From Mobula hypostoma (taxonomy: Eukaryota), in NCBI RefSeq assembly GCF_963921235.1, contig NC_086097.1, forward strand, positions 53,322,001-53,386,000: a stretch of 64,000 nucleotides of DNA. The letters run 5' to 3'. The notes under the pieces were generated by a model. That model worked only from the letters and a program-made list of their open reading frames with translations. It made no database searches and was not told where the DNA came from. Below are positions 1,825-59,925 of this stretch, in pieces. Numbering within the stretch: the stretch's first letter is position 1; the number at the start of each line of letters is the position of its first letter. The position numbers were made by a program, and so were the translations under genes.

Positions 1825-1963
1825 ACGAAGGGTCCTGACGAAGGGTCTCAACCCGAAACGTCGACTGTACCTCTTCCTAGAGATGCTGCCTGGTCTGCTG
1901 CGTTCACCAGCAACTATGATGTGTGTTGCTTGAATTTCCAGCATCTGCAGAATTCCTCGTGTT
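1825..1963 (+). mobile_element. Short Penelope-like 3' terminal insert
   Basis: Homologous to the 3' ends of longer GIY-YIG copies; 14-bp TSD TGCATGCAA(G/T)TATG at 1811-1824 and 1964-1977. Confidence 0.85.
1831..1866 (+). ncRNA. Minimal type-I hammerhead ribozyme motif (Penelope-like associated)
   Basis: GGTC-CTGACGA-A-GGGT-ctca-ACCC-GAAA-CG-TC-GACT. Confidence 0.75.
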
Positions 1964-4186
1964 TGCATGCAATTATGTATAGGCAAGTCAATATAAAGAC
2001 TTTCCTAAAAATTTGGTAAAAATGATCAAAAATCTCAAACTCATTAAAACCTCACCAAGGAGCAAGTGAGTAAATGGTGTTCATAATAGTACGTATGTAT
2101 TGTGGCTTGTAAACTAGTTTTGATAGATACATTGACCATGGGGAATATAAATAAATCACAACAGCTTATGCTTACAAATTAATGTACTAAAAATAAGACC
2201 CAGAGCACAGGAAGCAAGCTTTGTTTAGAAACTACACAGCATATGAATCAAAAAGTTAGAACTACCATAATATATCTGATTCATGAATTTAAAAGGCACT
2301 TTAAGAGAGCTGCAGTAATTTTGTTCCCTGAGAACGGCAATAACTTTTAAGTCATCTCGGGATTGGTTAGATACTCATGAACATGAACAAAATGCTGCTC
2401 TGATAACCACAAAAACCTCCAGGTTTACAGGCAGATGGAAGTTATGATCTGAAAATGAGTAAGATTATCCAAGAAAGGAAATGAAAACTAGCATCTATTA
2501 TCCTATCAATGTAATAACTTTGTAATGCATTTGTAATAGCCACACCACTTAATTGCAGGCTCGATTTTACCACAAAAATGCACCAAAAAACATAAAAATT
2601 TCTGTTTAAATGATGGTAGAAAACATCCTATGTTTCTCTCTCTCACTTTGATCAAGGCACATGTATGATTCTCTCCATTTCCAAATTGGAAACAGGACAA
2701 GGAAACAAGCAAGTTGAAATGTACTGCTACTTGTGCCTTTAGATTACTATACTAATACACCTGAAATGGTCTCTTGTATTAACTACAAAAGTACAAGAGG
2801 TAAAGGAAAGAGGAAGTAATTTGTACTTTAAGGATCAGATTTAAAAGTAAAATTGTTAGAGAGACAACTCACTTAGTACCCATATTAAAAACATGTCATT
2901 TTGTATATCTCCATAAATATTTGAACTGTATCTACAGTTCACAAAACCCGTAAACAGTTCAATAGCCCAGCAGATACATTAATGAAAAGCTCAAGCTGTT
3001 TTATATTTCGGACAAAATGCAACTGCAGCTCAGTTGGGTCAGGTACTTACACCTGGCCTCCAGGCAGGCTCTAAGTTAACTGACTGGCCTCTCAGGGATG
3101 TGGTGCCTACTGGAGTAACCTAAGTTTCCATGGCAACTACAATACTCTTCTTTGTACCAAGATCTTAAAACATCTGGCTGAAATTTAAATACACAAGGTG
3201 AATGAAAAAATTCTGCACAGCAAGTGCCCTTGCCGAAGAAATAGAGCAGTGTTCAAATAGATTATTGGGTAGTACTTTGAACAATTCTTTATAATCTTCT
3301 TTAGAATGCTTTTCCATTTCACTGCATTCTGTTAACCTTTCATATGGTGATTCTGGTTGAAAGCACTCCATTCAAGCCACACAATGACAAACCAAATCAC
3401 CTTTAATAGCATGGCCTCTAGCTGGAGAACACAATAATAATGTCACATGTCTAAAGTAGTTATTATGTAAAGCAAAAAAAATCTCAAACTGGTTCCCTCA
3501 ATGAATGAAAAAAAATCAGGCAAATCAATCCTCACACCATTGTACAAATGGGATTAAATGTACCAAAAAGAATCACCAAATACAAATGGGATTAAGTGTG
3601 CTAAACAGAACTGGATTTCTGAGCCACTAACTGAATCAACGTTGTTCTCTTTCCACAATTCAGACATTGCGTAGGTATGAACTCAATCACAGGACATAGG
3701 AGTGTTGTAGCACAACCTTGGCCACTCCATTATTCACATACATCAATAAAACCCCACATGCTAATTGTGTCCCAAAACCTTTACTCCAAATAAAATATGT
3801 AGACATATAATGAAGCACCTCTGAAGTGATGGACAACTAGGACAGGACTGGCTTCAGAAGTTCAGGAGGCCTTTACCCACGAACACTGGAAACACCAGGC
3901 AAGGGGAAATGTACCTAGCAAGGGATGTTTTGAGCTTAGCAACAAAATTAGAGTCAAACCACTTACATATTTTTATTGTGAAATTCATTGTGAGACAAGA
4001 CAACAGACTATCAGGAAGAACCTAGGTGATCAAAAGATCAAACCTGGACTGAAAGTTAAAGCCCAATATTCAACATTTCCTCAGAAAATGCTCTTCACTG
4101 AACTTTTCCTCCCTCTTCTATAATAGGGAAACAATTTCAAAACGGGAATGGAAAGGAATGGAAAGAAAAAGGGTACAAAGTCCAAC

Positions 4187-4484
4187 ACTATAACCATCAG
4201 GCTCCCGAACCGGTTTGGATACCTTCACTCACCACAACTCTGAACTGATTTCACAACCTACAGACCCACTTTTAAGGACCCTGTAACTCATGTTCTCAGT
4301 ATTTTTTTAATTTACACAATTTATCTTGTTTTGCAGGCTGATTGGTTGCCATTCTTTATATATTTTCATAAATTTTATTGCATTTCTTTATTTTCCTGTA
4401 AATGCCTGCAAAAAATTAAAGATCAAGGTAGAATATGGTGACATATACAGTATGTACTTCAATATAAATTTGACTGACTTTGAC
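4187..4484 (+). mobile_element. Rex1/Babar 3' UTR fragment
   Basis: Homologous to 58710-59052 and to the reverse complement of 42095-42400. Confidence 0.7.
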
Positions 4485-4894
4485 ATAGTGCCATACCACA
4501 CATAAGAGTCACTATGGGACCAAATGGGTTCATCTGCAGGGGTTCCCAATCTGGAGGTCCAATGCTGGGAACCCCTGCCTCATATCTAGTGCCTTGACCT
4601 TTTGAGTCAATAAGTATGCTGCAGGCAGTGGAAAGCCAGACCAAACAGGTGATTTAGTGGCATCTCTTGTAGTCCTGGAGAGAAGTCTAATCTCCAATAA
4701 GCCTCTTGATCTGTCACTATAGATTCAAGTCCCAGTCCAAAAAGTAGAAACACATTTTAGGTGGTCACTATGCCAAGTTCACATGCTTGTGTATTCTGTG
4801 GTAAATTTAATCATAGATCTCTAGTTTCAGCAAGTTCTAAAAGGGGACAATTTGCACATCCCTTGGATGGCTACGCTGGCATTAGGGATTGATA

Positions 4895-5157
4895 AAGGAA
4901 AGGTACATCGCATCCGGAGTTTCTCCGGTTAGCAGACGATTTCCCTCCACGCCTCTCTGACGTAGTAGGGAACCGTGTATGAGGCCATTTACAGCAGTGG
5001 TTTGCCTTTGCCTTTTGCCAGGTGAGCTTCCAAAGAGATCACCAGCTTGTAACCCAGCATGGATGGAAAGCATGCAGGGGAGCCAGCTGGCTGGATTTGA
5101 ACCCGGACCTTTCGTCCCGAAGTCCGACGCTGATGCCACTATGCCACCAGCCGGGTC
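4895..5157 (-). mobile_element. tRNA-derived SINE (tRNA-Arg(TCG)-like head)
   Basis: A box TGGCATAGTGG, B box GGTTCAAATCC, loop CTTCGG; TSD TAGGGAT(T/G)GATA at 4883-4894 and 5158-5169. Confidence 0.88.
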
Positions 5158-5635
5158 TAGGGATGGATATGATCAGGAAATGCAGTGATAAACTGTACAA
5201 TTCAATTGACCATCAATGTACTAGAAGACCACAACTATGTGCAGAACCACTAATTTTTTTGGAATCGAAATTGAGAAAGGACAACCCTGCTTCATAAGAT
5301 GTCTTCAGTCAGTATCGAGCCAGATGCATTCAGATTTTCAAACTGAGGTGGCTCAATAAGATAGCAATGCAACCAAAATTGAAAAGGATTTTCTACCAAA
5401 GACATGTGTTTTCCCACACCTCATTTTTGCTTTGATTCGACAAAAGAAACCCAAAGGGAATTTAATGATTAAGTGGCAACAATTCCTCTCACCTACCTGC
5501 CCCACCACGCTTCAACAAAAGCCACATATCCTACTCACTGAAACATCTTATAGAGGAAAAAGATGCATCGATTATAGCAGACTAAGATTAGCTCATGGCA
5601 ACTTCTGCTTGATTTTTATTTTTTTTTAATTGTAG

Positions 5636-6222: not shown

Positions 6223-8694
6223 CCATAACCTCTCATAACCATCCATAAATTCCCGTAACTTCTCTCAGATCAACCAGAGCCTACATTGCAGCCTCGATAC
6301 ATAGCCCAGTCCCAATTTGAATTTACTTCTCCACTATAATCCATTCTCTTGATTCCCAGTTACTGTCAATTTGCCCAAACCTTCATCTCCCCACTTCAGC
6401 TTCTCTTGGAAGATAAAATTAAACATCATCACCTGCACACTGTGCGGCAATCCCAACATCACTTTCCTCTCTGAGCAATACAGCAACACTTAGATACTCC
6501 AACACCTTTGGGACTTGGTCGAGCTGGACTAGCAGATTTTCTGGAGGTTTGGATGCTATTCATACCCAAGAATATTTTTATCTTTACATATTACAAAGCA
6601 GTATAATAAATTTTCTAGTGAATATGGGAAGTCAAGTCAAGCACTCTGAATCCCAACTCCAGCTACAAACTTACCCAATGTTCCTGACTCCTGGTACTTT
6701 AGACCCCAATCCTGGCCTGCAGTGATCCTTGGACCCTGGATACATACCCAACTTGTACTCTGAAGCCTCTGACTCACATTGAAAGCTAACAAGTGGCACA
6801 GATGACAGACCTTTAGAACTTTTGAACATTCAGATGCCAGACAATTAAGGTATTATTGGTCCCAGTATAGTAACCCCAAGATGGCTGAGTTTTTGGCTTC
6901 CTGTTATCTGACTATTTCAACAGTCTCTTCCTGCATTACCATTCTGCACGCAGTCTCTCACTTCTCCCAACACAAAACAATTCCCCCTCAAATGCCTTGC
7001 ATTACTTTTAGTTCTCCGGAGTTATCCAGATAAAAACTTGCAACTAAAGTGAAGATCAATAGTAAAGAAATTCAAGAATACATAAATTCAGTAAAGTATC
7101 TAAAACAATATACAAATTAACCTCACAGCAAAAAGCAAAGGGACTCAAAAGACAAAGTAATGTCCTAACATTAAGTATTGTGAAACGGCACCATGCTCTT
7201 CTCACGCAGACAAATGCATTTCAAGGCATTCTACTGAGCTATAATGACCCCTAACAGATCAAATTTCAACTGCCCGCTTGAAATCAACAGAATATTCACG
7301 GCACTTTGTATGGAGACATTACTAGTTTGCTGAATTTCTAGGCATACTTCTTTGATGCAGACATCATAAACAAAATTATTTTATGCATTGCTCCCTTTCA
7401 TATTAAATTAATCTTTTATTACTGCATATTTAATTGGAATCAAGATCATATTTTCCATTCAGAATTCCTTTACTTTTAAAAATGTGTTCTCAAAGCTAAA
7501 CTCATCTACTTGCCAGTTATAAATCAAAAATTTAACTGTCTAATCCTATGATAACCCATTTGTTTTCAAATGATTCACAAAATATACCCAAAAAAGGACA
7601 GTCCACCACTACTTTGAGCATTGATTTATACAAGCCTTGTATTCATTTAACGCACTAAGGTTGCCCTGTTAATAAAGAGGTTACCCATGTTGCCCCATAC
7701 TCAGTCTGCTGGCTTGAAGTTTGAATCCAACTTCTACAAACACTTCTTCCATGCTCGTCCAACTTGCCTTCTGGTTCTTTAACGCAAGAGATTGCGTAGA
7801 TGCTGGAAATCCAGAGTCGCTAACACACACGCAATTCTGGAGGCAGAAATGATGGAAAGGTGCCATTCGGGCTGAGACCTTTCATCAGGGCAGACTAAGC
7901 TGAAGGGATCTGGGAGGATGCAACACAAGACAGGCTACTGACTGCCGTGTGGCAACAGTCTCTCTGTTATGATTCCCAATTAATCTTCCATCAATTGCAT
8001 GTACTGAGGTGTTGTAAAGATACAAGTTGCATAAGGACATCAATAACCACAATCTCCATCTTCCTTTTACAAATGGTTACTCAGACATCCCTCCACAATG
8101 CTTGGCTCTTCACCTTCACATCATAAATGCTAACACCCATTTGAAGCAACAGAAATTCTTAACACATCACGTAATATAAAACACACTTGCAAACTGACTT
8201 CTAAAACATCCTTTGCATCCAAAATGCTTAACATACACTCTGGCCACATTATTCTGTACATGTGCTCGTTAATGCAAATATCTAATCAGCCAATCATGTG
8301 GCAGCAACTTAATGTATGAAAGCAAGCAGACATGATTAAGAACTTCAATTGCTATTCAGATCAAACATCACAATGGAGAAGAAATGTGATCTACGTGACT
8401 TTGACCATGGTGCCAGACAAGATGGTTTGAGAATCTCAGAAACTGCTGACCTCCTGGGATTTTCACATACAACAGTCTCTAGAGTTTACAGAGAATTATA
8501 TGAAAAAAGATGTTTAAAATCCAGTGAGTGGTAGTTCTGTGGGTGAAAGTGCTTTTTTAATGAGAGAAGCCAGAGGAGAAAGGCCAGACTGGTTCAGGTT
8601 GACAGAAAGACAACAGTTACTCAAACAATAATGAGTTACAACAGTGGTGTGCAGAAGATCATCTCTGAATGCACAACACATTGAACCTTGAAGT

Positions 8695-8933
8695 AACACA
8701 CACAAAAAATGCTGGTGGAAAGTAGCAGGCCAGGCAGCATCTCTAGGAAGAGGTACAATCGACGTTTCAGGTCAAGACCCTTCGTCAGGACTAACCGAAA
8801 GAAGAGATAGTAAGAGATTTGAAAGCGGGAGGGGGAAGGGGAGATCCGAAATGATAGGAGAAAACAGGAGGGGAAGGGATAGAGCTAGGAGCTGGAAAGT
8901 TGATTGGCAAAAGGGATACAAGGCTGGAGAAGG
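8695..8933 (-). mobile_element. Penelope-like 3' fragment inserted in a Tc1 relic
   Basis: TSD GAAC(C/T)TTGAAGT at 8683-8694 and 8934-8945; same family as 12899-13440. Confidence 0.85.
8757..8792 (-). ncRNA. Minimal type-I hammerhead ribozyme motif
   Basis: Reverse complement AGTC-CTGACGA-A-GGGT-cttg-ACCT-GAAA-CG-TC-GATT. Confidence 0.7.
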
Positions 8934-9595: not shown

Positions 9596-12250
9596 AAAAT
9601 AATATCTTTATAGCATGAGCGCTTTTCATGCAGATGTAGTTCAGGGTGCTTTATAACGGGATAAAAATACAAACATGAAAATAAAATAAAAATAACAAAT
9701 ATTAAAATAAATGACAAAACGATGTTAGATGAATAGGTTAAATAAATAGGTTTTGAGCTGGCATTTAAAAGTGTCAGCCAAGTCTGCATCCCTTTTAGCT
9801 TTTGGAGCATAGTTCAAAAAAGCTGACCTGCCAATTATATTTTGAGGGAGCTTGTTGAAGTGTAAGAGACCAGTGGAAGCAGATCTGAAATGTCGATCAG
9901 GATTATAAAATGAAAATGATTCTGTGATGTACTCTGGTCCCAGACCATTAACAGCTTTAAAAACACGCAAGAGAACTTTAAAATCAATTCTAAAACAGAG
10001 AGGTCAATGCAGAGTAGCTAATGAGAGTGATATGTTCCTTCATCCTGGTTTAAAAGTTTAGCAACGGCATTCTGAATCAGTTGAAGTTTGTCAGTAGACT
10101 GCATTGGAAGGGCAGTAAAAAGTACATTGCGGTAATCTAGTCTATTTGATACAAAAGTGTGAATCATATGTTAATTTCTGATGCTGAAGAACTTCATTTC
10201 ATATAGCTAGAGTGTCAAAGACTTTTGACCAGAACTGTATTTGTCAATGTGGAGCAAACAGCGAGTTTGTAAATCTCGCAGGAGCAAAGGATGTTGGAAA
10301 TGGCGAGGATGAAGCACAACAGGAGGGGTGTGGGACAGGCAGCAGGGAAGGAATGCCAGGGCAAGGGGTGGTGTGGGTGTAGAAACACCCAGTCCTGAGA
10401 CACCAGGTAAGGTCACTTGATTCCAAACAATTGGTTTATTGATCATTATAGAATGTTTCTCTGGTGCTTTCTGCTTACTCCCCTCCCTTTCCCCTTTTCT
10501 GAACCATGATTCTCCTATCCCTGCCCCCTTCGCACTCTCAGTTCACAATGGAGACCCATAACAAAATCAGGTTTATCATCACTCGCATGTCATAAAATTT
10601 GTTTTTTTTTTGCAGCAGTACAGAGCAATACATAAAACCACTACAGTATCGTGTAATATTTAAGTGTAGAAATGCTACTCTGATCACTTTCTATATGTGG
10701 GATTTAAAATTCAAATCAGAATCAAAGATAACACCCAGGCTTGTTACTTCTGATTTTACAAGGGGATTCCAATCCCCAAGTTTATCAAGGAGTTAATCTC
10801 TTTTGGTTTTGGGACCAACCAAAAGTATTTCAATTTTATCTTCATTTAGTTTTAGGAAATTATTGTTCATCAACTTGTTTACTGCAGCCATACTCGAAGT
10901 CAGAGAAGATTGGGTGTTATCATCATTGAGCTGAATCGAGATATACAGCTGTGTGTCATCTGCAGAACTGTGGAAATCAAGTTTATGCTCTCTAATGATG
11001 TCTCCTAAGGGGAGTATGTACAAGGAGAAATCAGCAACATCAAAAAGTACATATCTCTTAGAAGATTGGTTTCCAAGCCAGACAAGAAAAAAAATTCTCT
11101 CCAAGATACATGAGCAAACTAATTAAGGGCACCATCAGAGAGGCTAACCCAGTTTCAAGGCAATCTAGTAGAATGTTGTGGTCAATCGGTTGAAGGCAGC
11201 TCTTAGATCTAGACTCTATCGGCGTCAGTGCTGAGCCAAAGGTCGTTGACAATTCTGATAAGGGCTTTCTCCGTGCTGTGGTTTGCTCTAAAGTCTGACT
11301 GAAACTTTTCTAGAATATTGCTCTCATTCAGAAAGCTATTGAGTTGGTTGAAAGTGATTTTCTCAAGAACCTTGAGCAGGAAGGAAAGATTTGATACAGG
11401 GCTGTAGCTAACTATCAAGGTTTGGCTTTTTAAGTAGGGGTTTGACAGCCGCAGTTTTGAAGTCAACTGGAAAAACTCCAGTTTCAAGGGAGGTGTTAAT
11501 AATTTACTGAACAGGATTGAAAACACTATTAAAAGAGCCCTTAAAAAGTGTGGTAGGGACAGGATAGAGACAGCAAGTAGATGGCTTACTCATTGTTACA
11601 ATTTTATAGAGTTTGGAATCAGAAATACTAATAATTTTGACATGGTTGCCCTTTTTAAGAGGTTGGCTGTAGAGGTTACCTGTATATGTAGCTAATGGAA
11701 GCAATTTTGTTAATAAAAAGGATTGCAATTTCCTTGGATTTTGTGGAATTATATGCCTTGACTGAAGACATTTTATGTTGGGACAGGGTTCAACACTTGG
11801 TTTATATTTGAGAACATTATTCTTGAATTGGCATTATTCTCTGTAATAATCTCTGAAAAATAGGCTCTTCTTGCAGAGCATATGGCAGATTTAATGGACC
11901 CTAGTTTTTTCTTGTCCAGTTTTCCTCCATTTTCTCTCAACTAGTCAGCATGATCTTGAGTTCGGGGATATAATGTTTAATCATGGTGACGTTTTACTAA
12001 GTGATTTCTTAATCATTACCATATTACACAGTCAGTGGGGAGCAAATTAAAGGAATTAGTTTACACTGAATCTGTCATGCTGCAACTTTTATGCTTGAAG
12101 ATTAAACCTCCCATACATCTCGTGCACGTGTTGCTATTCATCCCAAATCTCACTATGAAAATCATATGTAACCACCTTCCCACCTCCCTGTCAATTATAT
12201 TAAAAAAATGTTTGGGATTTAGGGAAGTCTTCACCTGCCAATTGTGATTA
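9596..12250 (-). mobile_element. L2-clade LINE relic
   Basis: PVSNLSFLLKVLEKI..FQSDFRANHSTEKAL..; [25 protein letters not shown]; tail KCQLKTYLF. Confidence 0.85.
10200..10650 (+). mobile_element. Non-autonomous repeat (Tc1/mariner-like end) nested in L2
   Basis: Homologous to 33685-33945. Confidence 0.65.
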
Positions 12251-12898: not shown

Positions 12899-13440
12899 CA
12901 CATCAAAGCTGCTGGCGGACGCAGCAGGCCAGGCAGCAGCTCTAGGAAGAGGTACAGTCGACGTTTCGGGCCGAGACCCTTCGTCAGGACTAACTGAAAG
13001 AAGAGCTAGTAAGAGATTTGAAAGTGGAAGGGGGAGGGGGAGATCTGAAATGACAGGAGAAGACAGGAGGGGGAGGGATGGAGCCAAGAGCTGGACAGGA
13101 GGCCCAGGGAGAAGGAAAAGGGGGGGGGGGACCCAGAGGATAGGCAAGGGGTATAGTCAGAGGGACAGAGGAAGAGAAAGGAGAGAGAGAGAAAGAATGT
13201 GTGTATATAAATAATGGATGGGGTACAGGGGGAGGGAGGTGGGGCATTAGTGGAAGTTAGAGAGGTCAACGTTCATGCCATCAGGTTGGAGGCTACCCAG
13301 ACGGAATATAAGGTGTTGTTCCTCCAACCTGAGTGTGGCCTCATCTTTACAGTAGAGGAGGCTGTGGATAGACATGTCAGAATGGGAATGGGATGTAGAA
13401 CTAAAATGTGTGGCCACTTCCGCTAATGCCCCACCTCCCC
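12899..13440 (-). mobile_element. Penelope-like element 3' part nested in CR1
   Basis: VATHFSSTSHSHSDMSIHSLLYCKDEATLRLEEQHLIFRLGSLQPDGMN (GIY-YIG C-terminus) plus hammerhead-bearing 3' region. Confidence 0.88.
12956..12991 (-). ncRNA. Minimal type-I hammerhead ribozyme motif
   Basis: Reverse complement AGTC-CTGACGA-A-GGGT-ctcg-GCCC-GAAA-CG-TC-GACT. Confidence 0.78.
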
Positions 13441-16337: not shown

Positions 16338-17022
16338 TGTGAGTCTGTCGTGGTCATCTATTGTATCCGGTGCTCTCGGTGCGGCCTCCTCTACGTCGGT
16401 GAAACCTGATGCAGATTGAGGGACCGCTTCATCGAGCACCTCCGCTCCGTCCACCACAACAGACAGGATCTCCCAGTAGCCACCCACTTCAACTCTGCTT
16501 GCCACTCCCATTCAGATATGTCCATACATGGCCTCCTCTACTGCCATGATGAGGCTAAACAGATTGGAGGAACAACACCTCATATACCGTCTAGGTAGTC
16601 TCCAGCCCCTTGGTATGAACATAGAATTCTCCAACTTCCAGTAATTCCCTCCCCCTCCCTTCCTCTATCCCTATTTCACTCTGCCCCCTCCCCCAGCTGC
16701 CTATCATCTCCCTCATGGTTCCGCCTCCTTCTACAACCCATTGTGTTTTCCCCTATTCCTTCTTCACCTTTCCTGCCTATCACCCTGCTTCCCCTCCCCC
16801 ACCCCTTTATCTTTCCCCTTACTGGTTTTTCACCTGGAACCTACCAGCCTTCTCTCCCCACCTTCTTTATAGGGCCTCTGCCCCTTCCATCTTCAGTCCT
16901 GACGAAGGGTTCCGGCCCGAAACGTTGACTGATCGTTTCCACGGATGCTGCCCGACCTGCTGAGTTCCTCCAGCGTGTTGTGAGTGTTGCTTTGACCCCA
17001 GTATCTGCAGAGTATTTTGTGC
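16338..17022 (+). mobile_element. Penelope-like element 3' part
   Basis: Decayed GIY-YIG frame (C-x-R-C-G-L-L-Y-V-G-E-T...VATHFNS); TSD ATAAGATT at 16330-16337 and 17023-17030. Confidence 0.9.
16893..16932 (+). ncRNA. Minimal type-I hammerhead ribozyme motif (GUU triplet)
   Basis: TCAGTC-CTGACGA-A-GGGT-tccg-GCCC-GAAA-CG-TT-GACTGA. Confidence 0.72.
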
Positions 17023-18587: not shown

Positions 18588-19095
18588 CAGTCAATGGCCT
18601 CCTCTACTGCCATGCCCAGATAGGAGTAACACCTTATATTCCCTCTGGGTAGCCTCCAACCTGATGGCATGAACATTGATTTCTTAAACTTCCAGTAATG
18701 CACCCCCCCATCACCATTTCCCATTCCCATTTCCCTTCCTCACTTTACTTACCCATCGCCTCCATTTGGTGCTCCTCCCCCTTCCCTTTCTTCTATGGCC
18801 TTCAGTCCTCTCCTATCAGATTCTCCCTTCTCCAGCCCTTTATCTCTTTCGTCAGTTGACTTCCCAGCTTTTTACGTCACCCTCCCCCATCACCCACTAC
18901 CTTGTATTTCTTTCTCCCCTCCCCCCACCTTCTTAGCTGACTTCTCATCTTTTTTCTCCAGACCTAATGAAGGGTCTCGGCCGAAACATTAACTGTTCAC
19001 TCTTTTCCATAGATACTGCCTGGCCTGCTGATTTCCTCCAGCATTTTGTGTGTGTTGCTTGGATTCCCAGCACCTGCAGATTTTTTTTTGTTTGT
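18588..19095 (+). mobile_element. Penelope-like 3' fragment (older)
   Basis: Same GIY-YIG tail and pyrimidine-rich UTR; decayed hammerhead CTAATGA...GAAA near 18964. Confidence 0.8.
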
Positions 19096-19412
19096 AATGA
19101 TTTGTGTTGCCTATCAGTTCTTCATAGATGTATTTAATGAGTTTGCATGGAAAAATGAAAATAAACTGACAATCTCATAATGGAAGGAAGTAGTCTACCA
19201 TGAACCAGAGGGACAAAACATGTGATCAATTGTTCTACTTGGCAAACTTAATTTCCTACTGGACTGGATACCCACTCACTCATTGGCAAACTGACCACTT
19301 TTTTAGAACAACACTTATGAAATTACAAAGATTAGAAAAACAAAAGTATAATCACAACTATTGTAAAACATTTTTCAGAAACATATAATCAACAAAAAAG
19401 GGTTCCAAAACT

Positions 19413-20810
19413 CTGTTGGAGTTGTCTAGTGTATTTTGTGCACCCATTGCATTGATGAGACATCACATAAATTGTGGGACTGCTTTGTCAAGCACCTCCA
19501 CATCATCCAGCAAAAGCAGTATTTCCCAGTGGCCAACAATTTTAATTCCTATCCTTATTTCTGTTCTGACATGTTGGTCCATGGACTCTTCCTCTGCCTT
19601 GATGAGACTACTCTCAGGGTGGAGGAGAAGCACCTCATATTCCTTGTAGGTGGCCTCCAACATCAGCTCAAGTAGGCTGAAATGGACTCCCCTTCCCTTT
19701 GATTCTGCTTATGAAACCTTAAGCTTTCTGCAATCAACAATGGTTTTGATTCTGAATGTTCCTGCATTGCATTCACAATATCAGCAAATCTCATTTTGTC
19801 TGGTTTGGTTGGAGCAGTTAAACTTCTACGCAAACTATATACCTTTTCACCTATTGCACACATCAATACTGGCACTCATTTTTCATCTGCTATTTCATTT
19901 GCTTGAAAATACTGCTCAATTCATTCAGTATACATCATCCAGTTGTTGGTTGTGCAATTGAACACGTCTATCTTTCCGATGTAGCCAGCCATTTCTGCTT
20001 TTATTTACTTATTATCATCATCATCATCATCTGGTACTCACTGGTTATTCATTATGAACCTATGCTGTATTCATTGCTTGTTACTTCATCAGTGCTCTGC
20101 CTTTTTAAAAAAAAACTTGAACACCTCTCTCCCCTTCCAAAGAAAAAAGTGTTTCAACGTATAAGTAATGGTCATGGGTTTGTTTTAAAATGTTCCTGTC
20201 ACTACTGTATGTTTTGTAACTTCAGAAACTATTTGAAAGAAGAAAAAAAACACAGGAGCCAGGATATACGTCCATTTAGGTTTTTGCCCCCTTTTTTTCA
20301 GTGAGGTGCTCACACATGATGTGGTAGCTTAATGACATATGCCATTCATGTACTTTTTATATATAACCCATAATGAGTTATGAAAACAAAGAAAGAATGC
20401 TTAATCAAATATATTAACAATATTCTTGAAATATTAAATACACTCCACTTCCCTCTTCTTCTATTCTCCTCTCTGGCCTCTTCCCTCTGCTCTTTACCTG
20501 CCTATCATCACCCCCTGGTGCCCCTCTTTCTCCTATGGTCCACTCTCCTGTCAGAATCCTTCTTCTCCAGCCCTTTACCTTTCCCACCCACCTGATTTCA
20601 CCTATCACCTTTTAGCTTGTCCTCCTTCTGCTCCCCCCAACTTTTTATTATGGTATCTTTGCCCTCCTTTTCCAGTCCTGATGAAGTATCTCAGCCTGAA
20701 ACATTGACTGTTTATTCATTTTCATAGATGCTGCCTGACCTGCTGTGTTTCTGCAACTTTTTGTGTGTGTTTCTCTGGATTTCCAACATCTGCAGAATCT
20801 CTTGTGTTTA
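19413..20810 (+). mobile_element. Penelope-like fragment split by a Gypsy-type insertion
   Basis: GIY-YIG-like sequence at 19413-19660 resumes as the 3' UTR at about 20445-20810. Confidence 0.72.
19661..20444 (-). mobile_element. Ty3/Gypsy-like gag fragment plus probable LTR
   Basis: AIGEKVYSLRRSLTAPTKP...FADIV...EH...KPLLIAE...RFHKQNQREGESISAY resembles Gypsy gag; adjacent AT-rich segment about 20206-20444 could be the LTR. Confidence 0.7.
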
Positions 20811-21524
20811 AGATAGAGTGCATATTGCCTTGTAGAGTAAGTAGCATAGGTGTACGTTTTAAGATGCTATATACATTTTAAAGACTTATTTCAAGAACAG
20901 TCATTGATCCCACAGAGTAAATGTTTCACTCATCATTTAAGATTAAATATGAAATTGGTGAAACAATTAAATAGCCCTTATTTTGGTTAATAATCTACAC
21001 TTTTGTTTGGTGCCCATGAAAACTGATTATTATGGTTTTTTCAAATATTGAATGGTGTACATCAGACATTTAATTTTAGAACAAAAGTTTAATTTACAGT
21101 TGTGCCATTTATTTCAGAGAATAACATTTGTAATTAGCTTTTTCATAATAATTCAGTTAAGTGGCTACATTCATTTTAGATCAAATGTTGCCATCTTCTG
21201 GAGTATTGTATATTTGCAAGGTTTTGATAATATCCTCCAGTTCCTTTCTCTGCCCACCTTGTAACCTCATCTCATGAGAGACTAGTGTGTCTGCTTTAGA
21301 ATTCTGGTGTTGGGCATACGGATGAGATGGTCTGCGAAGGGGGCTGACAGAGAGTATAACCACAGTTGGAAAGCTGGGGTTATTGTCCTGGGAGAGGATT
21401 AATGTTGGTTTACTTATTCTTCCAGTGAATTTGATAAATTATGCAGTGACAGTATATTTGACTGCTGAGTTACCTATTAAAGCAGTCCTGGTCGCAGAAG
21501 CATATGGAAATCAGGAATCACCAC

Positions 21525-21910: not shown

Positions 21911-22057
21911 CTTACATATTGAAAGTAATATTTTCCTAAGGTCTCCTTCTGAACCTTTACAAAACTGGAAATGGTCAGAAAGGTTTTATCATGCTTTTGT
22001 CTTTGCTCAACAATTGAGTAATGGATAGTTGGAGATTAAAATATTTATTGAAAATAA

Positions 22058-26961: not shown

Positions 26962-27191
26962 GGGGGGGGAGGGGGAGGAGAGGAGAGGAGGGGGAGGAGA
27001 GGAGAGGAGGGGGGGAGAGGAGGGGGGGGAGAGGAGGGGGGGAGAGGAGGGGGGGGAGAGGAGTGGGGGGAGAGGAGGGGGGGAGAGGAGGGGGGGAGAG
27101 GAGGGGGGGAGAGGAGGGGGGGGGAGAGGAGGGGGGGGAGAGGAGGGGGGGGAGAGGAGGGGGGGGAGAGGAGGGGGGGGAGACGAGGGGA
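26962..27191 (+). repeat. Polypurine GGAGAGGAG(G)n tandem repeat
   Basis: About 230 bp of almost pure G/A with a 13-15 bp unit. Confidence 0.95.
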
Positions 27192-43590: not shown

Positions 43591-43850
43591 CGTTGCTTAG
43601 TCTTGAGAATATCATCCAGAAGTTCACGTTCCTCAAAACTCATGGAACTTTCTGCTCTCTCTTCTTCCTCATGGACCATTTTATCATAAAACCTCACTGG
43701 ATACCATCCAGTCATAATATCATAAGTGATTACACAACCTAAAGAGTGGGCTACTATTGAGACTTTCCCACCTTGGACTTCAAAGTCTGGGTTTCGAGAA
43801 CAAAACAGCTCATATAATCGATTTAGCTCCTGCTGTAGACCTTTTACAAT
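43591..43850 (-). CDS. DDHD1: DDHD1 coding exon (about exon 7) with the catalytic lipase serine
   Basis: 260 bp, cag/gtaagg; IVKGLQQELNRLYELFCSRNPDFEVQGGKVSIVAHSLGCVITYDIMTGW...KTKQR; AHSLG lipase box. Confidence 0.97.
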
Positions 43851-43945
43851 CTGGTAGGGGACAAAAAAAAACATAAATGATCTGTCTACTCTTCATTAAT
43901 CACGTTTTGTGCAAATTATACAAATACAATGAGACCCACATTATC

Positions 43946-44091
43946 CCCCTCCCCCTCCAACTTTCAAATCCCTTACTCACTCTTCCTTCAGTTAGTCCTG
44001 ACGAAGGGTCTCGGCCTGAAACGTCGACTGCACCTCTTCCTACAGATGCTGCCTGGCCTGCTGCGTTCACCAGCAACTTTGATGTATGTTG
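43946..44091 (+). mobile_element. Short Penelope-like 3' insert
   Basis: Perfect 11-bp TSD CCCACATTATC at 43935-43945 and 44092-44102. Confidence 0.88.
43994..44029 (+). ncRNA. Minimal type-I hammerhead ribozyme motif
   Basis: AGTC-CTGACGA-A-GGGT-ctcg-GCCT-GAAA-CG-TC-GACT. Confidence 0.7.
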
Positions 44092-44329
44092 CCCACATTA
44101 TCAACATTCATTTAATTCTATACTAGTGTAAATACGCTAACTCCGAATGATATGCTGCTGTTCATCAATTCCAGATGTAGTATTATGTTAAAAAAGCATG
44201 CAGCTATTTAATTTAATATGGAATTATAACTGGATATGAAAATGTAAATGATATTCCTAATCCAATAGATTTCATATACAAATTTTAAAATACACTATAA
44301 TTCAATAATAGATTGGGTGGTACAACTCA

Positions 44330-46436
44330 CCTTGTAATAGCATTGGAGAGGGATAGGAACAGACAAGTTAGGAAAGCGTTTAATTGGAGTAAGGGGAAAT
44401 ATGAAGCTCTCAGGCAGGAACTTGGAACCATAAATTGGGAACAGATGTTCTCAGGGAAATGTATGGCAGAAATGTGGCAAATGTTCAGGGGATATTTGCA
44501 TGAAGTTCTGCATAGGTATGTTCCAATGAGACAGGGAAAGGATTGTAGGGTACAGGAACTGTGGTATACAAAGGCTGTTGAAAATCTAGTCAAGAAGAAA
44601 AGGTTACTTAAGGTTCAAAAAGCTAGGTAATGATAGAGATCTAGAGGATCATAAGGCTAGCAGAAAGGAGCTTAAGAATGAAATTAAGAGAGCCAGAAGG
44701 GGCCATGAGAAGGCCTTGGCAGGCAGGATTAAGGAAAATCCCAAGACATTCTATAAGTATGTGAAGAGCAAGAGGATAAGAAGTGAGAGAATAGGACCAA
44801 TCAAGTGTGACAGTGGACAAGTGTGTATGGAACCAGAGGAGACAGCAGAGGTACTTAATGAATATTTTGCTTCAGTATTCACTACGAAAAAGGATCTTGG
44901 CGATTGTAGGGATGACTTAAGGTGGACTGAAAAGCTTGAGCATATAGATATTAAGGAAGAGGATGTGCTTTTGGAAAGCATCAAGATAGCTAAGTCACCG
45001 GGACCAGACGAGATGTACCCCAGGCTACTGTGGGAAGCGAGGGAGGAGATTGCTGGGCCTCTGGCGATGATCTTTGCATCATCAATGGGGATGGGAGAGG
45101 TTTTGGAGGATTGGAGGGTTGCAGATTTTGTTCCCTTATTCAAGAAAGGGAGTAGAAATAGCCAAGGAAATTATAGACCAGTGAGTCTTACTACAGTGGT
45201 TGGTAAGTTGATGGAAAAGACCCTGAGAGGCAGGATTTAAAAACATTTGGACAGACATAATATGAGTAGGAATAGTCAGCATGGCGTGCCTTATGAGCCT
45301 GATTGAATTCTTTGAGGATGTGTAGTGTATATGGATTTCAGCAAGGCATTTGATACCCCATGCAAAGCTTATTGAAAAAGTAAGGAAGCATGGGATCCAA
45401 GGGGACATTGCTTTGTGGATTCAGAATTGGCGTCCACAGAAGGCAAAGAGTGGTTGTAGATGGGTCATATTCTGCATGGAGGTCGGTGACCAGTGGTGTG
45501 CCTCAGGGATCTGTTCTGGGACTCCTTCTCTTTGTGATTTTTATAAATGACCTAGATGAGAAAGTGGAGGGATGGGTTAGCAAATTTGCTGATGACACAA
45601 AGGTTGAGGGTTTTGTGGATAGTTTGGAGGGCTGTCAGAAGTTACAGCGGGACATCGATAGGATGCAAAACTGGGCTGAGAAGTGGCAGATGGAGTTCAA
45701 CCTAGATAAGTATGAGGTGGTTCATTTTGGTAGGTCAAATATGATGGCAGAATTTAGCATTAATGGTAAGACTCTTGGCAGTGTGGAGGATCAGAGGGAT
45801 CTTGGAGGTCCGAATCCATAGGATGCTCAAAGCAACTGTGCAGGCTGACTCTGTGGTTAAGAAGGCATACGGTGTATTGACCTTCACTGACCCCACTTGG
45901 AGTACTGTGCTCAGTTCTGGTCGCCTCACTACAGGAAGGATGTGGAAAATAGACAGGGTACAGAGGAGATTTACAAGGATGCTGCCAGGATTGGGGAGCA
46001 TGCCTTATGAAAATAGGTTGAGTGAACTCGGCCTTTTCTCCTTGGAGCGACGGAGGATGAGAGGTGACCTGACAGGTGAGTAAGACGATGAGAGTCATTG
46101 ATCGTGTGGATAGTCAGAGGCTTTTTCCCAGGGCTGAAATGGCTAACATGAGAGGGCACAGTTTTAAGGTGCTTGGAAGTAGGTACAGAGGGGATGTCAG
46201 GGGTAAGTTGCTTGTTTTTTTCCGCAGAGAATGATGAGTGCGTGGAATGGGCTGCTGGTGACGGTGGTGGAGGCGGATATTATAGGGTCTTTAGAGAGAC
46301 ACCTGGACTGGTACATGGAGCTTAGAAAAATAGAGGGCTATGGGTAACCCTAGGCAATTTCTAAAGTAAGTACATGTTCGGCACAGCATTGTGGGCTGAA
46401 GGACCTGTATTGTGCTGTAGGTTTTCTACGTTTCTA
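44330..46436 (+). mobile_element. CR1 LINE ORF2 relic (about 2.1 kb)
   Basis: KSPGPDEMYPR, NYRPVSLT, SGVPQGSVLG, KFADDTK motifs with indels; complete 3' tail. Confidence 0.95.
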
Positions 46437-47685: not shown

Positions 47686-49800
47686 TCAAAGTTCAAAGTA
47701 AAACTTATTACCAGAATACATACATATCACCACATACAACTTTGAGATTTTTTCTTTGCAGGCATACTTAGCAAATCTATAGAATAACTGTAAACATCAG
47801 GAACTGTTACCTGTAAACAAACTGTGCAAATGCAGATATAAATAGATAGCAATAAATAATGAGCATGAAATAACAATATAACAGAGTCCTTAAATGAGTG
47901 TAGCTATCCCCTTTTGTTCAAGAGCCTAATGGTTGAGGGGTAGTAACTGTTCTTGAATCTGGTGGTGCAAGTCCTGAGGCACCTGTACCTTCTACCTGAT
48001 GGCACCAGTGAGAGAAGAACATTGCCTGGGTGGTCAGGATCTTTGATGATGGAAGCTGCTTTTCTCCAGCACCATTTCATGTAGGTGTGTTCAATGGTTG
48101 GGAAAGTTTTACCTCCTTGGGTAGGATTTTTCATTCAAAGGCATTGGTGTTCCCATACCAGGCTGTAATGCAGCCAGTCAGCACACTTTCCATCACACAT
48201 CTATAGAAGTTTACCAAGGTTTCAATGACATGCCAAACCTCCACAGACTCTTGAGGAAGTCGAGGTGCTGTCGTACTTTCATTGCAATAATATTTATATG
48301 ATAAGTCCAGGACAGGTCCTCTGAGACAGTGACACCCAAGAATTTAAAGTTGGTGACCCTCTCCCACCTCCAATCCTCTGATAATTACAGGCTCATGGAC
48401 CTCTGGTTTCCCTCTCCTGAAGTCTACAAGTCTTAGTCTTATTGACAATAAGTGAGAGGTTGTTGTTATTACACCACTCAGCCAAATTTTCAATCTCTCT
48501 CCTGAATGCTGATTCATCACCCCCTTTGATACAGCCCACAACAGTGGTGTTGTCGGTAAACTTGTATATGGTATTGGAGCTGTACTCAGCCACACAGTCA
48601 TAGGTGTAAAGTGAGTGGAGCAGGGGGCTACGTACTCATCCCTGTGGTGCTCTTGTGCTGGTGGAGATTGTGAAGGAGATGTTTTTGCCAATCCAAACTG
48701 ACTGGGGTCTACAAGTGAGGAAACCCAGCATCCAGTTGCACAAGGGGGTATTGAGGCCCAGATCTTGGAGCTTACTGATTAGTTTTGAGGGGTTACTGGT
48801 GTTAAATGCCAAGCTGTAAATCGATAAAGAACATCCTAGTATATGTACCTTTGCTGTCCAGGTGTTCCAGGGTTGTGTGAGGAACCAATGAGACAGCATC
48901 TGCTGTAGTCCTGTTGGTTTGGTAGGCAAATTGGAGCGGATCCAAGTCACCTTTCGCATAGGAGCTGATATGTTTCAGCACTAACCTCTCAAAACACTTC
49001 ATCAATGTGTATGTTAGTGACACTGGGTGATAGTCATTCAGAGAAGTTACCACACTCTTCTTGGGCACCGGTCTGATTGAAGCCGGCTTGAAGCAGGTGG
49101 GTACCACACATTGCTGGAGCAAGAGATTGAAGCTATCTGTGAATACATCAGCCATTTGGTCAGCACAGGTCTTCAGTACTAAGCCAGGTACTCTGTTCAG
49201 ACTGGATGCTTTCCCTGGATTCACCACCTTGAAGGCAGCCTGCACGTCATCTTCAGATACTGAGACCAAAGGATCATCAGGAGACATGGAGATGTGTGAT
49301 GATTCCTCCCTGTTCTGGTGACCAAAGTGAGCATAGAAGGCATTGAGTTCATCTGGAAGCGAAGCTCTGCTGTCCCCTCTGTTGCAAGATTTAGCTTTGT
49401 ATCAGGTTATGTCATTCAAACCCTGCCAAAGCTGTCGAGCATCTCTCGTTGATTCCAGTCTAGTCTGGAATCTCCACTTTGCCCGAGAGATGCTTTCCGG
49501 AGATCATACCTGCACCTCTTGTAGCATTCTTGATCTCCAGACTTGAATGCCTCTGACCTGGCTCTCAGCAGGTTTCAGATTTCATTGCTCATCCAGAGTT
49601 TCTGATTGGGGGAAACACTGAATGATTTTGTGTAACACACTCATCCACAGCTGTTTTAATAAGTCTGTAACCACCTTGGTGTAGTCATTCAGGTCCTCAG
49701 ATGAGTTTTGAACAAGGCCCAGTCGACTGATTCAATGCAATCCTGTAACTATTCCTCAGCCTCCCGCGACCACCTCTTGGTTGTCTTAATTTCTGGAGTC
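47686..49800 (-). mobile_element. Rex1/Babar LINE relic (about 2.1 kb)
   Basis: [60 protein letters not shown]; tail TTRFKNSYYPSTIRLLN. Confidence 0.9.
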
Positions 49801-55450: not shown

Positions 55451-55871
55451 CTACCAAATATAACAGAAAATCTGTGTTATTATGAATTTTAAAAAGTGAA
55501 AGCATATAGGAGACAAGTCATACCATCAAAATATTTAATTTCTTTCTTTTGTCTTTGACATGTTTGGCAAAAAAAATAACTGAATTATATTTGACATAAC
55601 ATTGTCATCACTAACTTCACATCAATATAAATCTTTATCATGCACTGTATAAGGGTTGTGCGTACATTATTTGAATTAATCATGTTTCATTTGCATACCA
55701 AGTTCAGAAACCTGATGGAACTTTATTGAAGTTGAATTTAAAGAAAATTAACTTTTGCCCATTTATTTTTCTATTTAATACATGTAATCTGATTGCCATT
55801 AATCATGATTTTCTGCAGAATATAAAGATTCTTAATAAGACAAAAAAAAAAGCAAAATAATACTTCTGAAG

Positions 55872-56128
55872 ACCTGGCTGGTGGCATAGTGGCATCAGTG
55901 CCGGACTTCGGGATGAAAGGTTCCAGGTTCGAATCCAGCCGGCTCCCCTGCACACTTTCCATCTGTGCTGGGTTACAAGCTGATGATCTCTTTGGAAACT
56001 CACCCGGCAAAAGGTAATGGCAAACCACTGCTGTAACTTGCCTCGTACATGGTTCCCCACTACGTTAGAGAGGCGTGGAGGGAAACCGCCCACTAACTGG
56101 AGAAACTCCGGATACGACGTAAAAAGAA
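55872..56128 (+). mobile_element. tRNA-derived SINE, second copy
   Basis: Full-length homolog of 4895-5157; B box GGTTCGAATCC; TSD ACTTC(T/C)GAAG at 55862-55871 and 56129-56138. Confidence 0.88.
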
Positions 56129-56156: not shown

Positions 56157-57090
56157 AATGGCTGTTTCATTTCTTGTCCTTACCTACCACCTCATCAGCT
56201 TCCGCATCCAACACATTATCCTCCACAACTTCCACCATCTCCAAAGGGATCCTACTACTCAACAAACCTTTACCACCACCGCCCCCCCACCACTTTCTGC
56301 AGGGATCACTCCCTCTTCGATTCCCTTGTCCATCCATTCATTCCTCCCCATTAATCTCCCTCCCAGTACTTATCCCTGCAAGTGGCCAAGTGCCTGCCCA
56401 TACACCTGCTCCCTCATCTCCATTCAGGGCCCCAGGCAATCCTTTCAGGTGAGGCAACACTTCACTTGCAGATCTGCTGGAGTTGTCGATGGTGTCCAGT
56501 GCTCCTGATGAGCCACCTCTATATTGTTGAGACCCTGTGTAAATCGGGGGACCGCTTCATTGAGCACCTCCGCACCATCAGCCATAAGCGAGACTTCCTG
56601 GTGGCCAAACATTTTAATTCTGATTCTTTTTATGACATGTCGGTCCTTGGCCTCCTCCTGTGCCAAGATGAGGCTACCCTCAGGATGGAGGAGTAACACC
56701 TTATAATCTGTCTGGGTAGCCTCTAACCTGATGGCATGATATCTCCTTCTGGTTAACAAATTCCCTCCCCTCCACCTTCCTCTATTCTCTATTCTGACCT
56801 TTTATCTCTTTACACCTGCTTATTACTTCCCCTGGGTCCCCTCCTCCTTCCCTTTCTCCTTTCATCCACTCTCCTCTCCTATCAGGTTCTTACTTATCCA
56901 GCCCTTGACCTTTCCCACCAACCTGGCTTCACCTATCACCTTCCCCTCCCCCCATCTTTTTATTCTTGTATCTTCCCCTTTCTTTCTCAGTCCTAAGGAA
57001 GGGTCTCGGCCCGAAAAATCAACTATCTGTTCACTTCCAAAGATGCTGCTTGACCTGCTGAGTTCCTTCAGCACTTTGTGTGTATTGCTT
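56157..57090 (+). mobile_element. Penelope-like element 3' part
   Basis: LVLTYH..QHIILHNFHHLQRDPTT..IQGPRQSFQVRQHFTC..; decayed hammerhead near 56989-57024. Confidence 0.88.
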
Positions 57091-57297
57091 CATGTAGCTA
57101 ATAAGTTAGTTTCAGTGCTCAGAAAAAAAATCAAGGAGATGAAATAATATCCAATGTCAAAGACTATTTCTTGGAAGCACCACAATCCTTGCTGCTTGAT
57201 GGCATTGATTGTCCACTTTCATGCAACCACCATTTTCCACCAAAATACTTCAAGTAACCAATTAATCTGGATTGTTGATCAAAGACAAGTAGGAATA

Positions 57298-57434
57298 CCG
57301 AGACCCTGATGAAGGGTCTTGGCCCGAAACGTCGACTGTACCTCTTCCTATAGATGCTGCCTGGCCTGCTGCGTTCACCAGCAATTTTTACGTGTGTTGC
57401 TTAAAATTCCAGCATCTGCAGATTTCCTCGTGCT
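57298..57434 (+). mobile_element. Short Penelope-like 3' terminal insert
   Basis: TSD TAGGAATA at 57290-57297 and 57435-57442; near-identical in extent to 1825-1963. Confidence 0.85.
57302..57337 (+). ncRNA. Hammerhead core with the 5' arm of helix I replaced
   Basis: CTGATGA-A-GGGT-cttg-GCCC-GAAA-CG-TC-GACT, preceded by GACC instead of AGTC. Confidence 0.55.
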
Positions 57435-58419
57435 TAGGAATATATTCAGCTATTAATTTCCTTTATATCTGTACCCTTCAAAAAAGATTTTACATTGCTA
57501 TGAAAATCATTCTGCAAAGCCAAATTAAGGATTATCTTAAGCCTATCATTAAAGCTGGAGGTGAATTTTCAGTAAATAGATTCTTGCTTAAAATTAGTAT
57601 GAAATGTGAGGAAAAAATGCTTTAAGTATCCAGGAAATGGAGAAATAAAAATAGAAAATGTTAGATATTCCCAGCTGGCATGACAACATATGTGTGAGAA
57701 AAATATTTCAGGTTGATGATCCTTCATTAAGAAATAGGCATTTTAGTGTCACAACCCTACTATTCACTGACCTGGAATTAAAACAATGGTAAGAAAGTAT
57801 AGCCCTGACCAAAACGTTGACTGTACTTTTCCCCCCACAGATGCTGAGTTCCTCCAGCATTTTGTGTGTTACTCGGATTTCCAACATCTGTAGGTTTTCT
57901 CGTGTTTAAGAAAGTATAGACTCAGTTCATCAATCAAGATGGGTATTGGTTTATTATTGACATGTGTACCAAGATACAGTGAAAAGCTTGTCTTGTGTAC
58001 TACTCCCACAGATCAAACCATTATAGCTAGAATAACATAAACAATAACATTGCAGAAAAAAGTGCAAAAGATTCTGAAAGAGGGCAGTGGAGGTAAATGA
58101 TCATAACAAAGTAGACTGAGAGACCAAGAGTCTGCTTCACTTCACAAGGTCTGTTCAAGAGTCTGACAGAAGCGTTAAGAGTTAAGACAGAAGCTGTCCT
58201 TGATCCTGGTTGTATGTGCTCTTACGGTTTTGTATCCTCTGTCCAATGGGAGAGGGAAGAAGAAAGAATGTTGGGGGGGGGAGGAGAGAGAAGAGGAGCG
58301 GTGTCTTTAATTATGCTGGCTGCTTTACTGAGGCAGCAGGAAGTATATAATGAAGTAGATAGGGCCCAGGGCATCACAGGTAAAATCCTTCCTGCCATCG
58401 AGCACATGTAGTTGTTTAA

Positions 58420-58700
58420 GGATACAGCACAAAGTATGCCCTTTTGGCCTTTCAAGCCACACTGCCCCTGCAAACCCCCAACACACCAATTAACCCCGAC
58501 CTAATGTCAGGAGAATTTACAGTGATCAATTACCCTACTCAGTACATCTTTGGATTATGGGAGGAAACTGGAGTACTCGAGGAAACCCATGTAACTAGGG
58601 GTAGGATGTATAGAAACTCCTTACAGGATGGCCACGGGACTGAACTCCAAACTCTGGAATGGCCCAAGCTGTAACAGCACTGCGTTAATCACTACATCCC
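58420..58700 (-). mobile_element. HE1-like V-SINE
   Basis: Homologous to 5986-6222. Confidence 0.75.
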
Positions 58701-58704
58701 CTTT

Positions 58705-59052
58705 CTCACACACCACCAGGTTCAGGAACAGTAAAAACCCCTCAACCATCGGGCTCTTGATAACATCCTTCAGCTTCACTTGCCCCATCACTGAACTGTT
58801 CCCACAAACTACGGACTCAGTTTCAAGGACTCTTCATCTCATGTTCTCAGTGTTTACTGGTTATTTTTTCTCTTTTGTAGTTGCAGAGTTTGCTCTCCTT
58901 TGCACTTTGGTTGTTTGTCGTCCTGCTGGGTGTGGTCTTTCACTGATTCTATTGTGTTTCTGGATTTACAGTGCATGCCCAAAAGAAAATGAATCTCAGG
59001 GTTGGATATGGTGACATATATTACTTTGATAATAAATTTACTTTGAACTTGA
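58705..59052 (+). mobile_element. Rex1/Babar 3' end
   Basis: HTTRFRNS..PSTIGLL followed by the UTR ending aataaatttactttgaacttga. Confidence 0.75.
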
Positions 59053-59153
59053 GAAGAGTCTATTTATCAGAATACTGATGAAAGAACAAGCTGGACCAGG
59101 ACAGCTTACTACATCATGGCAGTCATGCCAGTTAGGGACTTGGGCTATATTGT

Positions 59154-59925
59154 CCATTATCTATATTGTCCATCTCCACTGATCTCCCACCTGGCACTTA
59201 TCCCTGTAAGTGTAAGTGCTACACCTGTCCCTACACCTCATCTATTGCACCATTCAGGGCCCCAAACAGTCCTTCCAGGTGAAACAACACTTCACTTGGA
59301 GTCTGTTGGGGTCATCTATTGCATCCGGTGTGGCCTCCTCTACATCGGTGAAACCCGACGCAGATTGGGGGACCGCTTCGAGCACCTCCACTCTGTCCGC
59401 CACAACAGACAGAATCTCCCGGTAGCCACCCACTTCAACTCTGCTTCCCATTCCCATTCAGATATGTCCATACATGGCCTCCTCTACTGCCATGATGAGG
59501 CTAAACTCAGGTTGGAGGAGCAACACCTCATATACCGTCTAGGTAGTCTCCAGCCCTTTGGTATGAACATAGAATTCTTCAACTTCCGGTAATTCCCTCC
59601 CCCTCCCTTCCCTATCCCTATTTCACTCTGCCCCCTCCCCCAGCTCCCTCATGGTTCCGCCTCCTTCTTCTACTACCCATTGTTTTCAGGGCTATGACGT
59701 CAATGCTTCCCCTCCCCCAACCCTTTGTCTTTCAAATTACTGATCTTTCAACTGACGTTACAAGCATTCTTCAAATCCTTCCCCATCTTTCATTCTTCAG
59801 TCCTGATGAAGGGTTCCGGCCCGAAACGTCGACTCATCATTTCTGACTGATGCTGCCCGACCTGCTGAGTTCATCCAGCGTACTGAAAGTGTTGCTTTGA
59901 TCTTTTACAGCATCTGCAGATTATT
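59154..59925 (+). mobile_element. Penelope-like element 3' part with GIY-YIG endonuclease remnant
   Basis: GVIYCIRCGLLYIGETRRRLGDRFEHL...VATHFNS...LEEQHLIYRLGSLQPFGMNIEF; 14-bp TSD TTGGGCTATATTGT at 59140-59153 and 59926-59939. Confidence 0.92.
59799..59834 (+). ncRNA. Minimal type-I hammerhead ribozyme motif
   Basis: AGTC-CTGATGA-A-GGGT-tccg-GCCC-GAAA-CG-TC-GACT. Confidence 0.78.

Follow-up and report, generated by a model that had tools for sequence, protein, structure and literature searches.

Minimal hammerhead ribozymes (min-HHRs) are found in the pseudo-long terminal repeats (pLTRs) of metazoan Penelope-like elements (PLEs), including Xena, Poseidon and Neptune from fish, and the passages of the study describing them that deal with abundance give descriptor-based counts of about 4,000 motifs in the coelacanth and about 9,000 in Xenopus (Cervera & De la Pena 2014, PMC4209133). 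In Anolis carolinensis, a later work on the Poseidon element PAc explains its pattern of two starts and a 37-nt tail by internal initiation of reverse transcription, and reports that in vitro cleavage needed protein and that insertion did not need cleavage (Frangieh 2024, PMC11167929). Here we analyze a 64,000-nt stretch of the genome of the ray Mobula hypostoma (assembly GCF_963921235.1, contig NC_086097.1, positions 53,322,001–53,386,000 of the forward strand; hereafter the window), which contains a dispersed family of such motifs. We are highly confident that the 36-nt motif is a type-I hammerhead of the minimal kind, carried by a PLE in its terminal repeat, and that the copies in the window are 5′-truncated insertions of this repeat and likely inactive leftovers. 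The identity given in an earlier note on this DNA, a PLE hammerhead of this type with an extra A after A9 and a palindromic ACGU replacing helix III, was thus confirmed.

The earlier note assigned a common pattern to seven loci, which for the most part stood. Four of them match it exactly: 12956–12991 (minus strand), 3′ of a GIY-YIG C-terminal remnant at 13253–13378; 16895–16930 (plus), of subfamily B and with a GUU triplet, 3′ of a GIY-YIG remnant at 16338–16635; 43994–44029 (plus), of the young subfamily A, within a copy spanning 43944–44092 that is 97% identical to the tandem element L241 described below; and 59799–59834 (plus), about 210 nt past the stop of another GIY-YIG remnant. Six of the seven passed a test of core plus helices, the two additional core-intact motifs being those at 8757–8792 (minus), whose outer helix I pair is a G·U and which lies inside a pLTR remnant (8682–8899), and at 1831–1866 (plus), which begins with GGTC, is 5′-truncated at −31 (positions are numbered from the predicted cleavage site, with G1.1 as 0), is preceded by a 13-bp duplication and continues as pLTR to around 1967. 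The pattern failed at 57302 (plus), where the core is kept and the 5′ strand of helix I is missing: the copy starts at 57305 (5′ end −29, motif 57305–57337), with a short inverted piece ahead of it and a predicted hairpin masking the core, and is not scorable as intact. Using nhmmer and a profile made from natural copies, we identified 16 copies within the window, whereas a reversed sample gave none. These include all four decayed copies proposed before near 7865 (7775–7891, minus), 18961 (an older copy, 18594–19098, plus), 20674 (an older pLTR copy, 20673–20816, plus, with helix II and the ACGU palindrome disrupted) and 56989 (an older copy with a GIY-YIG remnant, 56173–57092, plus), as well as decayed pLTR copies absent from the previous list (22054–22129, 27537–27635, 38405–38489 and 62317–62454, all minus) and one pLTR copy cut off within the hammerhead (57807–57914, plus). 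No Rfam family reached its gathering score in the window, and the Rfam hammerhead models gave no match at E ≤ 10 against positions 43700–44300.

Five of the window copies follow GIY-YIG domain remnants at a distance of 200–300 nt, and the segment 59168–59592 (plus) is the 3′ end of a Penelope-like open reading frame (ORF), comprising the end of the linker and the GIY-YIG domain, with 68–74% identity to intact L241. A search with the GIY-YIG remnant from the window and an N-terminal piece retrieved long frames from the genome, among them L241 (G000:C2:157227501-157237500; array L241:1456-8520, minus strand), a very young head-to-tail array with one unit retaining an intact frame. It contains three hammerheads spaced by 3516 and 3514 nt, and its units are identical at 3508 of 3516 positions. 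The 1043-aa frame includes the motifs DKG, YIDD, a CKRNKCYTC linker and GVIY...YIG (residues 448, 689, 910 and 946, respectively) and matches Pfam RVT_1 and GIY-YIG, both under the curated cut-offs; the closest named homolog of the element protein is from Chiloscyllium (71%). In tandem arrays, the hammerhead is placed about 125 nt ahead of the next ORF and 200–300 nt past the stop of the ORF for reverse transcriptase (RT) and GIY-YIG. We also observed traits of endonuclease-containing (EN+) PLEs, namely tandem pLTRs, an inverted 5′ partner (an opposed copy lies within 150 bp for 101 of 355 copies) and a 30–40 nt tail. Judged from its sequence, the layout of L241 is that of a Neptune/Nematis-type PLE as described in the corresponding passages of PMC8557442. 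Each copy in the window represents the pLTR of such a retrotransposon, which encodes RT, a CxxC linker and GIY-YIG. As to the clade, we take Neptune to be likelier than Nematis.

The exact 34-nt pattern has 62,740 matches in the 3.48 Gb genome (1 per 55 kb), and the reversed pattern has none. A sample of 1.28 Mb, from 11 regions outside the window, contained 306 copies, with 142 spanning the motif and 31 of them intact (1 per 41 kb), which would amount to some 800,000 relics genome-wide if the sample is typical; we estimate the intact copies in the genome at 60,000–85,000. The window is richer than average, with four exact matches versus 1.16 expected (Poisson p 0.03), and hence the earlier density of one motif per 9 kb does not extend to the genome, where intact copies occur about once per 41–55 kb. 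A descriptor scan of 1.544 Mb retrieved 30 matches, with one in the reversed control; all 30 belong to the Penelope hammerhead family, and on this basis we rejected the idea that the genome has another family of hammerheads.

The ends of the copies were mapped on 64 of 72 young family-A copies, leaving out eight rows matched to reference C. Their 3′ ends form two groups, at about +65 and about +102, defining a 37-nt tail, and 14 of the 39 copies reaching −29 have their 5′ end between −29 and −37, or 4.0% per base versus 0.5–0.7% on both sides. Genome-wide searches with junction patterns containing three forced mismatches located the same hot spot, with 227 junctions at −41 (1.8% per copy), 760 at −35 (4.2%), 1416 at −32 (18.6%) and 935 at −30 (5.9%), compared to 31 at −2 (0.2%), 235 at 0 (1.4%), 64 at +1 (0.4%) and 87 at +3 (0.3%) around the cleavage site; these rates were normalized with denominators from 14–44 copies of the sample, older subfamilies are included in the matches at −32 and −30, and chance matches shift junctions from −31 and −30 into −32. 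Most copies are 100–200 nt long and have a defined 5′ edge near −32, as might be expected if they were a non-autonomous family, akin to retrozymes (which derive from pLTRs) or to short interspersed nuclear elements, that uses a short or circular RNA of its own for replication. However, 5′ ends are distributed continuously from +44 to −2219, well into the ORF, short and ORF-bearing copies have subfamily variants in common, circles would yield junctions at the cleavage site, and short tandem units were not observed, the window having no such array and the tandem found being the 3.5-kb coding unit. An independent life of the short copies is thus very improbable.

The excess of junctions at position 0 has a particular composition. 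Among the first 100 listed, examined by eye, 57 read CAG|GACT, the reverse complement of the 5′ strand of helix I, and five TAG, and 19 carried CGA, CAA or TGA, which correspond to the helix II strand in reverse complement; at 20 chosen loci, 17 were inversions and three were joined to host DNA. We therefore rejected a run-off peak at the cleavage site, because the excess consists mostly of inversions joined at helix I or at GAC microhomology; self-priming at inverted junctions has already been discussed for rotifer elements. The lack of a clear run-off peak indicates, in turn, that templates were mostly uncut. In Drosophila Penelope, an intron ends at a pyrimidine-CAG before helix I of the hammerhead, according to the pertinent passage of PMC4209133. 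Splicing onto such a site found no support as the source of the hot spot in the ray, where the letters upstream of −32 and −30 are heterogeneous, without a common exon, and −30 is below −32. Likewise, a cap-G signature at −33 (52 G and 48 A in 100 junctions, by eye) is confounded by inversions and was dropped. [quoted passage not shown] The local TCAGT resembles an initiator. As a separate observation, short templated stretches copied from the hammerhead itself are present in many −32 junctions (e.g., ACGA ahead of AGTCC), which suggests that the template was switched repeatedly at this edge.

We found relatives of the element protein at 80 metagenome loci, with 33–66% identity (about 50%), and 26 of them reach the end of the ORF. 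The motif occurs 104–157 nt downstream of the ORF in 10 of these 26, and five of the 26 have less than 130 nt of flank; a strict descriptor gave seven matches in 270 kb versus 0.05 per strand in shuffled sequences. In an alignment of six window and 10 distant motifs, 93.8% of the cells are paired and six of the eight pairs show double changes, with a covariation of 0.78 versus 0.28 after shuffling (0/500) and of at most 0.13 after sliding. Comparison of these sequences thus indicates that the helices covary across distant relatives. The alignment is invariant for C3, U4, G5, A6, G8, A9, the extra A (16 of 16 rows) and G12 to A15.1; U16.1 is kept in 15 of the 16 rows, and the 10.1–11.1 pair in all of them (14 G-C and two G·U, the G·U also occurring in the commonest young subfamily).

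Within the ray, the subfamilies span about 5–26% divergence, and the extra A between A9 and 10.1 is kept in 217 of 230 copies. Mismatches to the class majority, counted at non-CpG sites of motif-spanning copies, amount to 8.4% in the core (104/1246), 9.3% in the helices and 11.3% downstream, and the difference between core and helices is not significant (p 0.37); inserted copies thus decay neutrally, with a small advantage of the core that is open to ascertainment. The CpG at 15.2/16.2 decayed symmetrically (TG 63 : CA 65 in 290 copies), which indicates neutral decay of a CG present in the masters, and so did that of loop II (67:60). Conversely, the ratios were skewed for the CpG at N7/G8 (TG 104 : CA 8) and at 11.1/G12 (123:57), and we deduce from this that the masters changed at the free partner of the CpG but not at the catalytic G. 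In master lineages, G8 and G12 were thus preserved, together with the palindromic CG, while N7 varied, and position 17 remained C or U in them; in the oldest class, U2.1-A1.1 replaces C-G in eight of 11 copies. As anticipated in the earlier note, the variants of helix II among copies are largely the product of CpG decay. The segment after the hammerhead (44040–44130, and +20 to +100 in all copies) is structured, equals the core in its conservation between subfamilies, and is likely the region where the protein binds and RT starts.

This pattern bears on whether the motif persists chiefly because it offers the element protein a fold or a boundary, with cleavage being marginal or vestigial. Copies pass through the cleavage site and accumulate at its 5′ edge, and subfamilies conserve the 60 nt downstream to the same degree as the core; additionally, hammerhead mutants left insertion in vitro unaffected in the Anolis Poseidon experiments described in PMC11167929, and Naiads proliferate without a hammerhead, as stated in a passage of PMC8557442. 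Nevertheless, the catalytic set is precisely what stays invariant across distant elements, whereas N7 and the helices vary, position 17 is restricted in masters as just described, and in Anolis the motif is able to cleave when the protein is present, as reported in the same part of PMC11167929. We consider a purely structural role doubtful.

Helix III cannot close within one strand, and a 48-nt monomer is predicted to fold as a rod in which G5-A6-N7-G8 pair with C15.2-G16.2-U16.1-C17 (pair probabilities of 0.82–1.0). For the copy at 43994, nearest-neighbor energies that ignore tertiary contacts place the strand-swapped dimer some 13 kcal/mol higher than a pair of rods. These predicted inactive folds fit the weak activity of dimers noted in PMC4209133 and the protein-dependent cleavage in Anolis. 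In the mechanism proposed for the full element, a single tandem transcript carries two hammerheads separated by 3.5 kb, and these would exchange strands, each ACGU binding the other and helix I forming between both; the pair would then cut after GUC, likely only with the help of the element protein, since an isolated copy is predicted to be an inactive rod. Reverse transcription would begin at two sites, +65 and +102, on mostly uncut RNA, pass through the hammerhead and often end at the foot of helix I on its 5′ side, most probably because the template RNA has its 5′ end there. We propose, tentatively, that the Penelope hammerhead may be a self-inhibited, protein-switched 5′ boundary module of a template that has a defined 5′ end on helix I and is copied uncut.

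Several observations weigh against our overall explanation of the motif and its copies. The rod was obtained only with 48-nt pieces, and in a 191-nt context a different fold is predicted, with neither helix I nor helix II and also inactive; likewise, the full rod is not formed in relatives with A at N7, or in L322. Position 0 has 4–7 times the junctions of its neighbors, and a jump from the cut end after run-off may concern about 1% of copies at most. The core has fewer mismatches than the downstream region (p 0.002), for which ascertainment or weak selection may account. The rows of the covariation alignment are related and we set the bounds of the motifs ourselves, which qualifies the covariation value of 0.78; and cleavage by the hammerheads of the ray element is something that we infer. 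Four contig sets of presumed RNA origin, compared with L241, had a depth that tracks genomic copy number and carry no information on strand or RNA ends, and they were counted neither for nor against cleavage.

The window also contains 10 coding exons of the host gene DDHD1b (26006–63995, minus strand), with three further exons up to 27 kb past its end; one exon is 96% identical to the protein from the stingray Hemitrygon, its best match. The copy at 43944–44092 lies antisense in an intron of this gene, about 120 nt from an exon. With 60,000–85,000 intact copies genome-wide, and a same-strand copy within 4 kb for 215 of 355 copies, dispersed copies could represent a real ribozyme load, whereby intact copies in pre-mRNAs would pair in trans and cut host RNA, and sense intronic copies would be purged. 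In line with this, the three core-intact copies among the 14 in the DDHD1b coding span are all antisense, and the six sense copies are all decayed; however, 14 copies from a single gene have no statistical weight and other signals can bias orientation. Moreover, the core decays as fast as the helices, the swapped dimer is disfavored with respect to two rods at 43994, published min-HHRs cut weakly even as dimers (in the relevant part of PMC4209133), and none of the Anolis RNA reads ended at the cleavage site, according to the portion of PMC11167929 that addresses them. A load of this kind is improbable, and the very large genome-wide load that the earlier note considered for a typical window was overstated: the dispersed copies undergo neutral decay, have no partner in tandem and should, as predicted, form an inactive rod. 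The scattered copies are most likely harmless relics.

Other repeats were apparent in the window. A 129-nt inverted repeat (35687–35961; 91% complementary, 17-nt spacer) adjoins a CR1-like remnant, and there are other remnants of long interspersed nuclear elements at 44301–46279, 35193–36750, 23661–24364, 48636–49401 and 10793–11833, with RVT_1 matches at 45384–45818, 48805–49401 and 11212–11589; we take these remnants to be CR1/L2-like. Another dispersed repeat of about 250 nt occurs at 4904–5158 and 55870–56121, in opposite orientations and 88–92% alike, and a purine-rich 14-nt tandem repeat in 16 copies (26962–27190) is in the last DDHD1b intron.

The sections of PMC4209133 that describe min-HHRs already contain the motif, its location, its scattering by truncated copies and the model of dimers. 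Our search of the literature for the motif in cartilaginous fish, including rays, found no study of it, and the supplements of PMC4209133 and of a 2026 preprint may list shark or ray examples. What the ray genome adds is the scale, with more than 60,000 near-identical motifs, a young intact tandem element, and a sharp hot spot of 5′ junctions at the edge of the ribozyme, with no clear peak at the cut site. These features point to where the role of PLE hammerheads can be sought; if they are indeed boundary modules, this role becomes directly testable in the ray genome, where tens of thousands of fossil junctions would map the RNA template at base resolution.

In comparison with the min-HHRs in the descriptive passages of PMC4209133, the ray motif likewise has the CUGANGA and GAAA boxes, a short helix I, an extra base between 9 and 10.1, and a palindromic 15.2–16.2 without loop 3, located in a pLTR and occurring mostly as single dispersed motifs, with some opposed pairs; of the four traits given there, all fit except for the G·U at 10.1–11.1 in the commonest young subfamily. 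The ray differs in its number of exact copies (62,740 versus about 4,000 and 9,000, counted by different methods), and in that its motifs are highly uniform, with a helix II of just 4 bp and the G·U at 10.1–11.1 in the youngest subfamily. As with Anolis PAc in the corresponding parts of PMC11167929, two RT starts bound a 30–40 nt tail, the hammerhead is at the junction of pLTR and ORF, and the template is uncut; however, in the ray the hammerhead precedes the start of the ORF, whose CxxC linker is of the Neptune/Nematis type, and the hot spot of junctions 5′ of helix I is not described for PAc in those parts. The element shares with Neptune/Nematis EN+ PLEs, as outlined in the passages of Craig 2021 (PMC8557442) dealing with them, a single ORF with RT, a C-terminal GIY-YIG and a CX2-5CxxC linker, as well as partial tandems, an inverted 5′-truncated partner and an optional tail. 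Finally, the non-LTR retrozymes presented in bioRxiv 2026.07.22.740005 also have a type-I hammerhead, derive from pLTRs and include retrozymes in one chondrichthyan, but they consist of short non-coding tandem units, whereas the ray copies are scattered and derive by truncation from a 3.5-kb unit with coding capacity.

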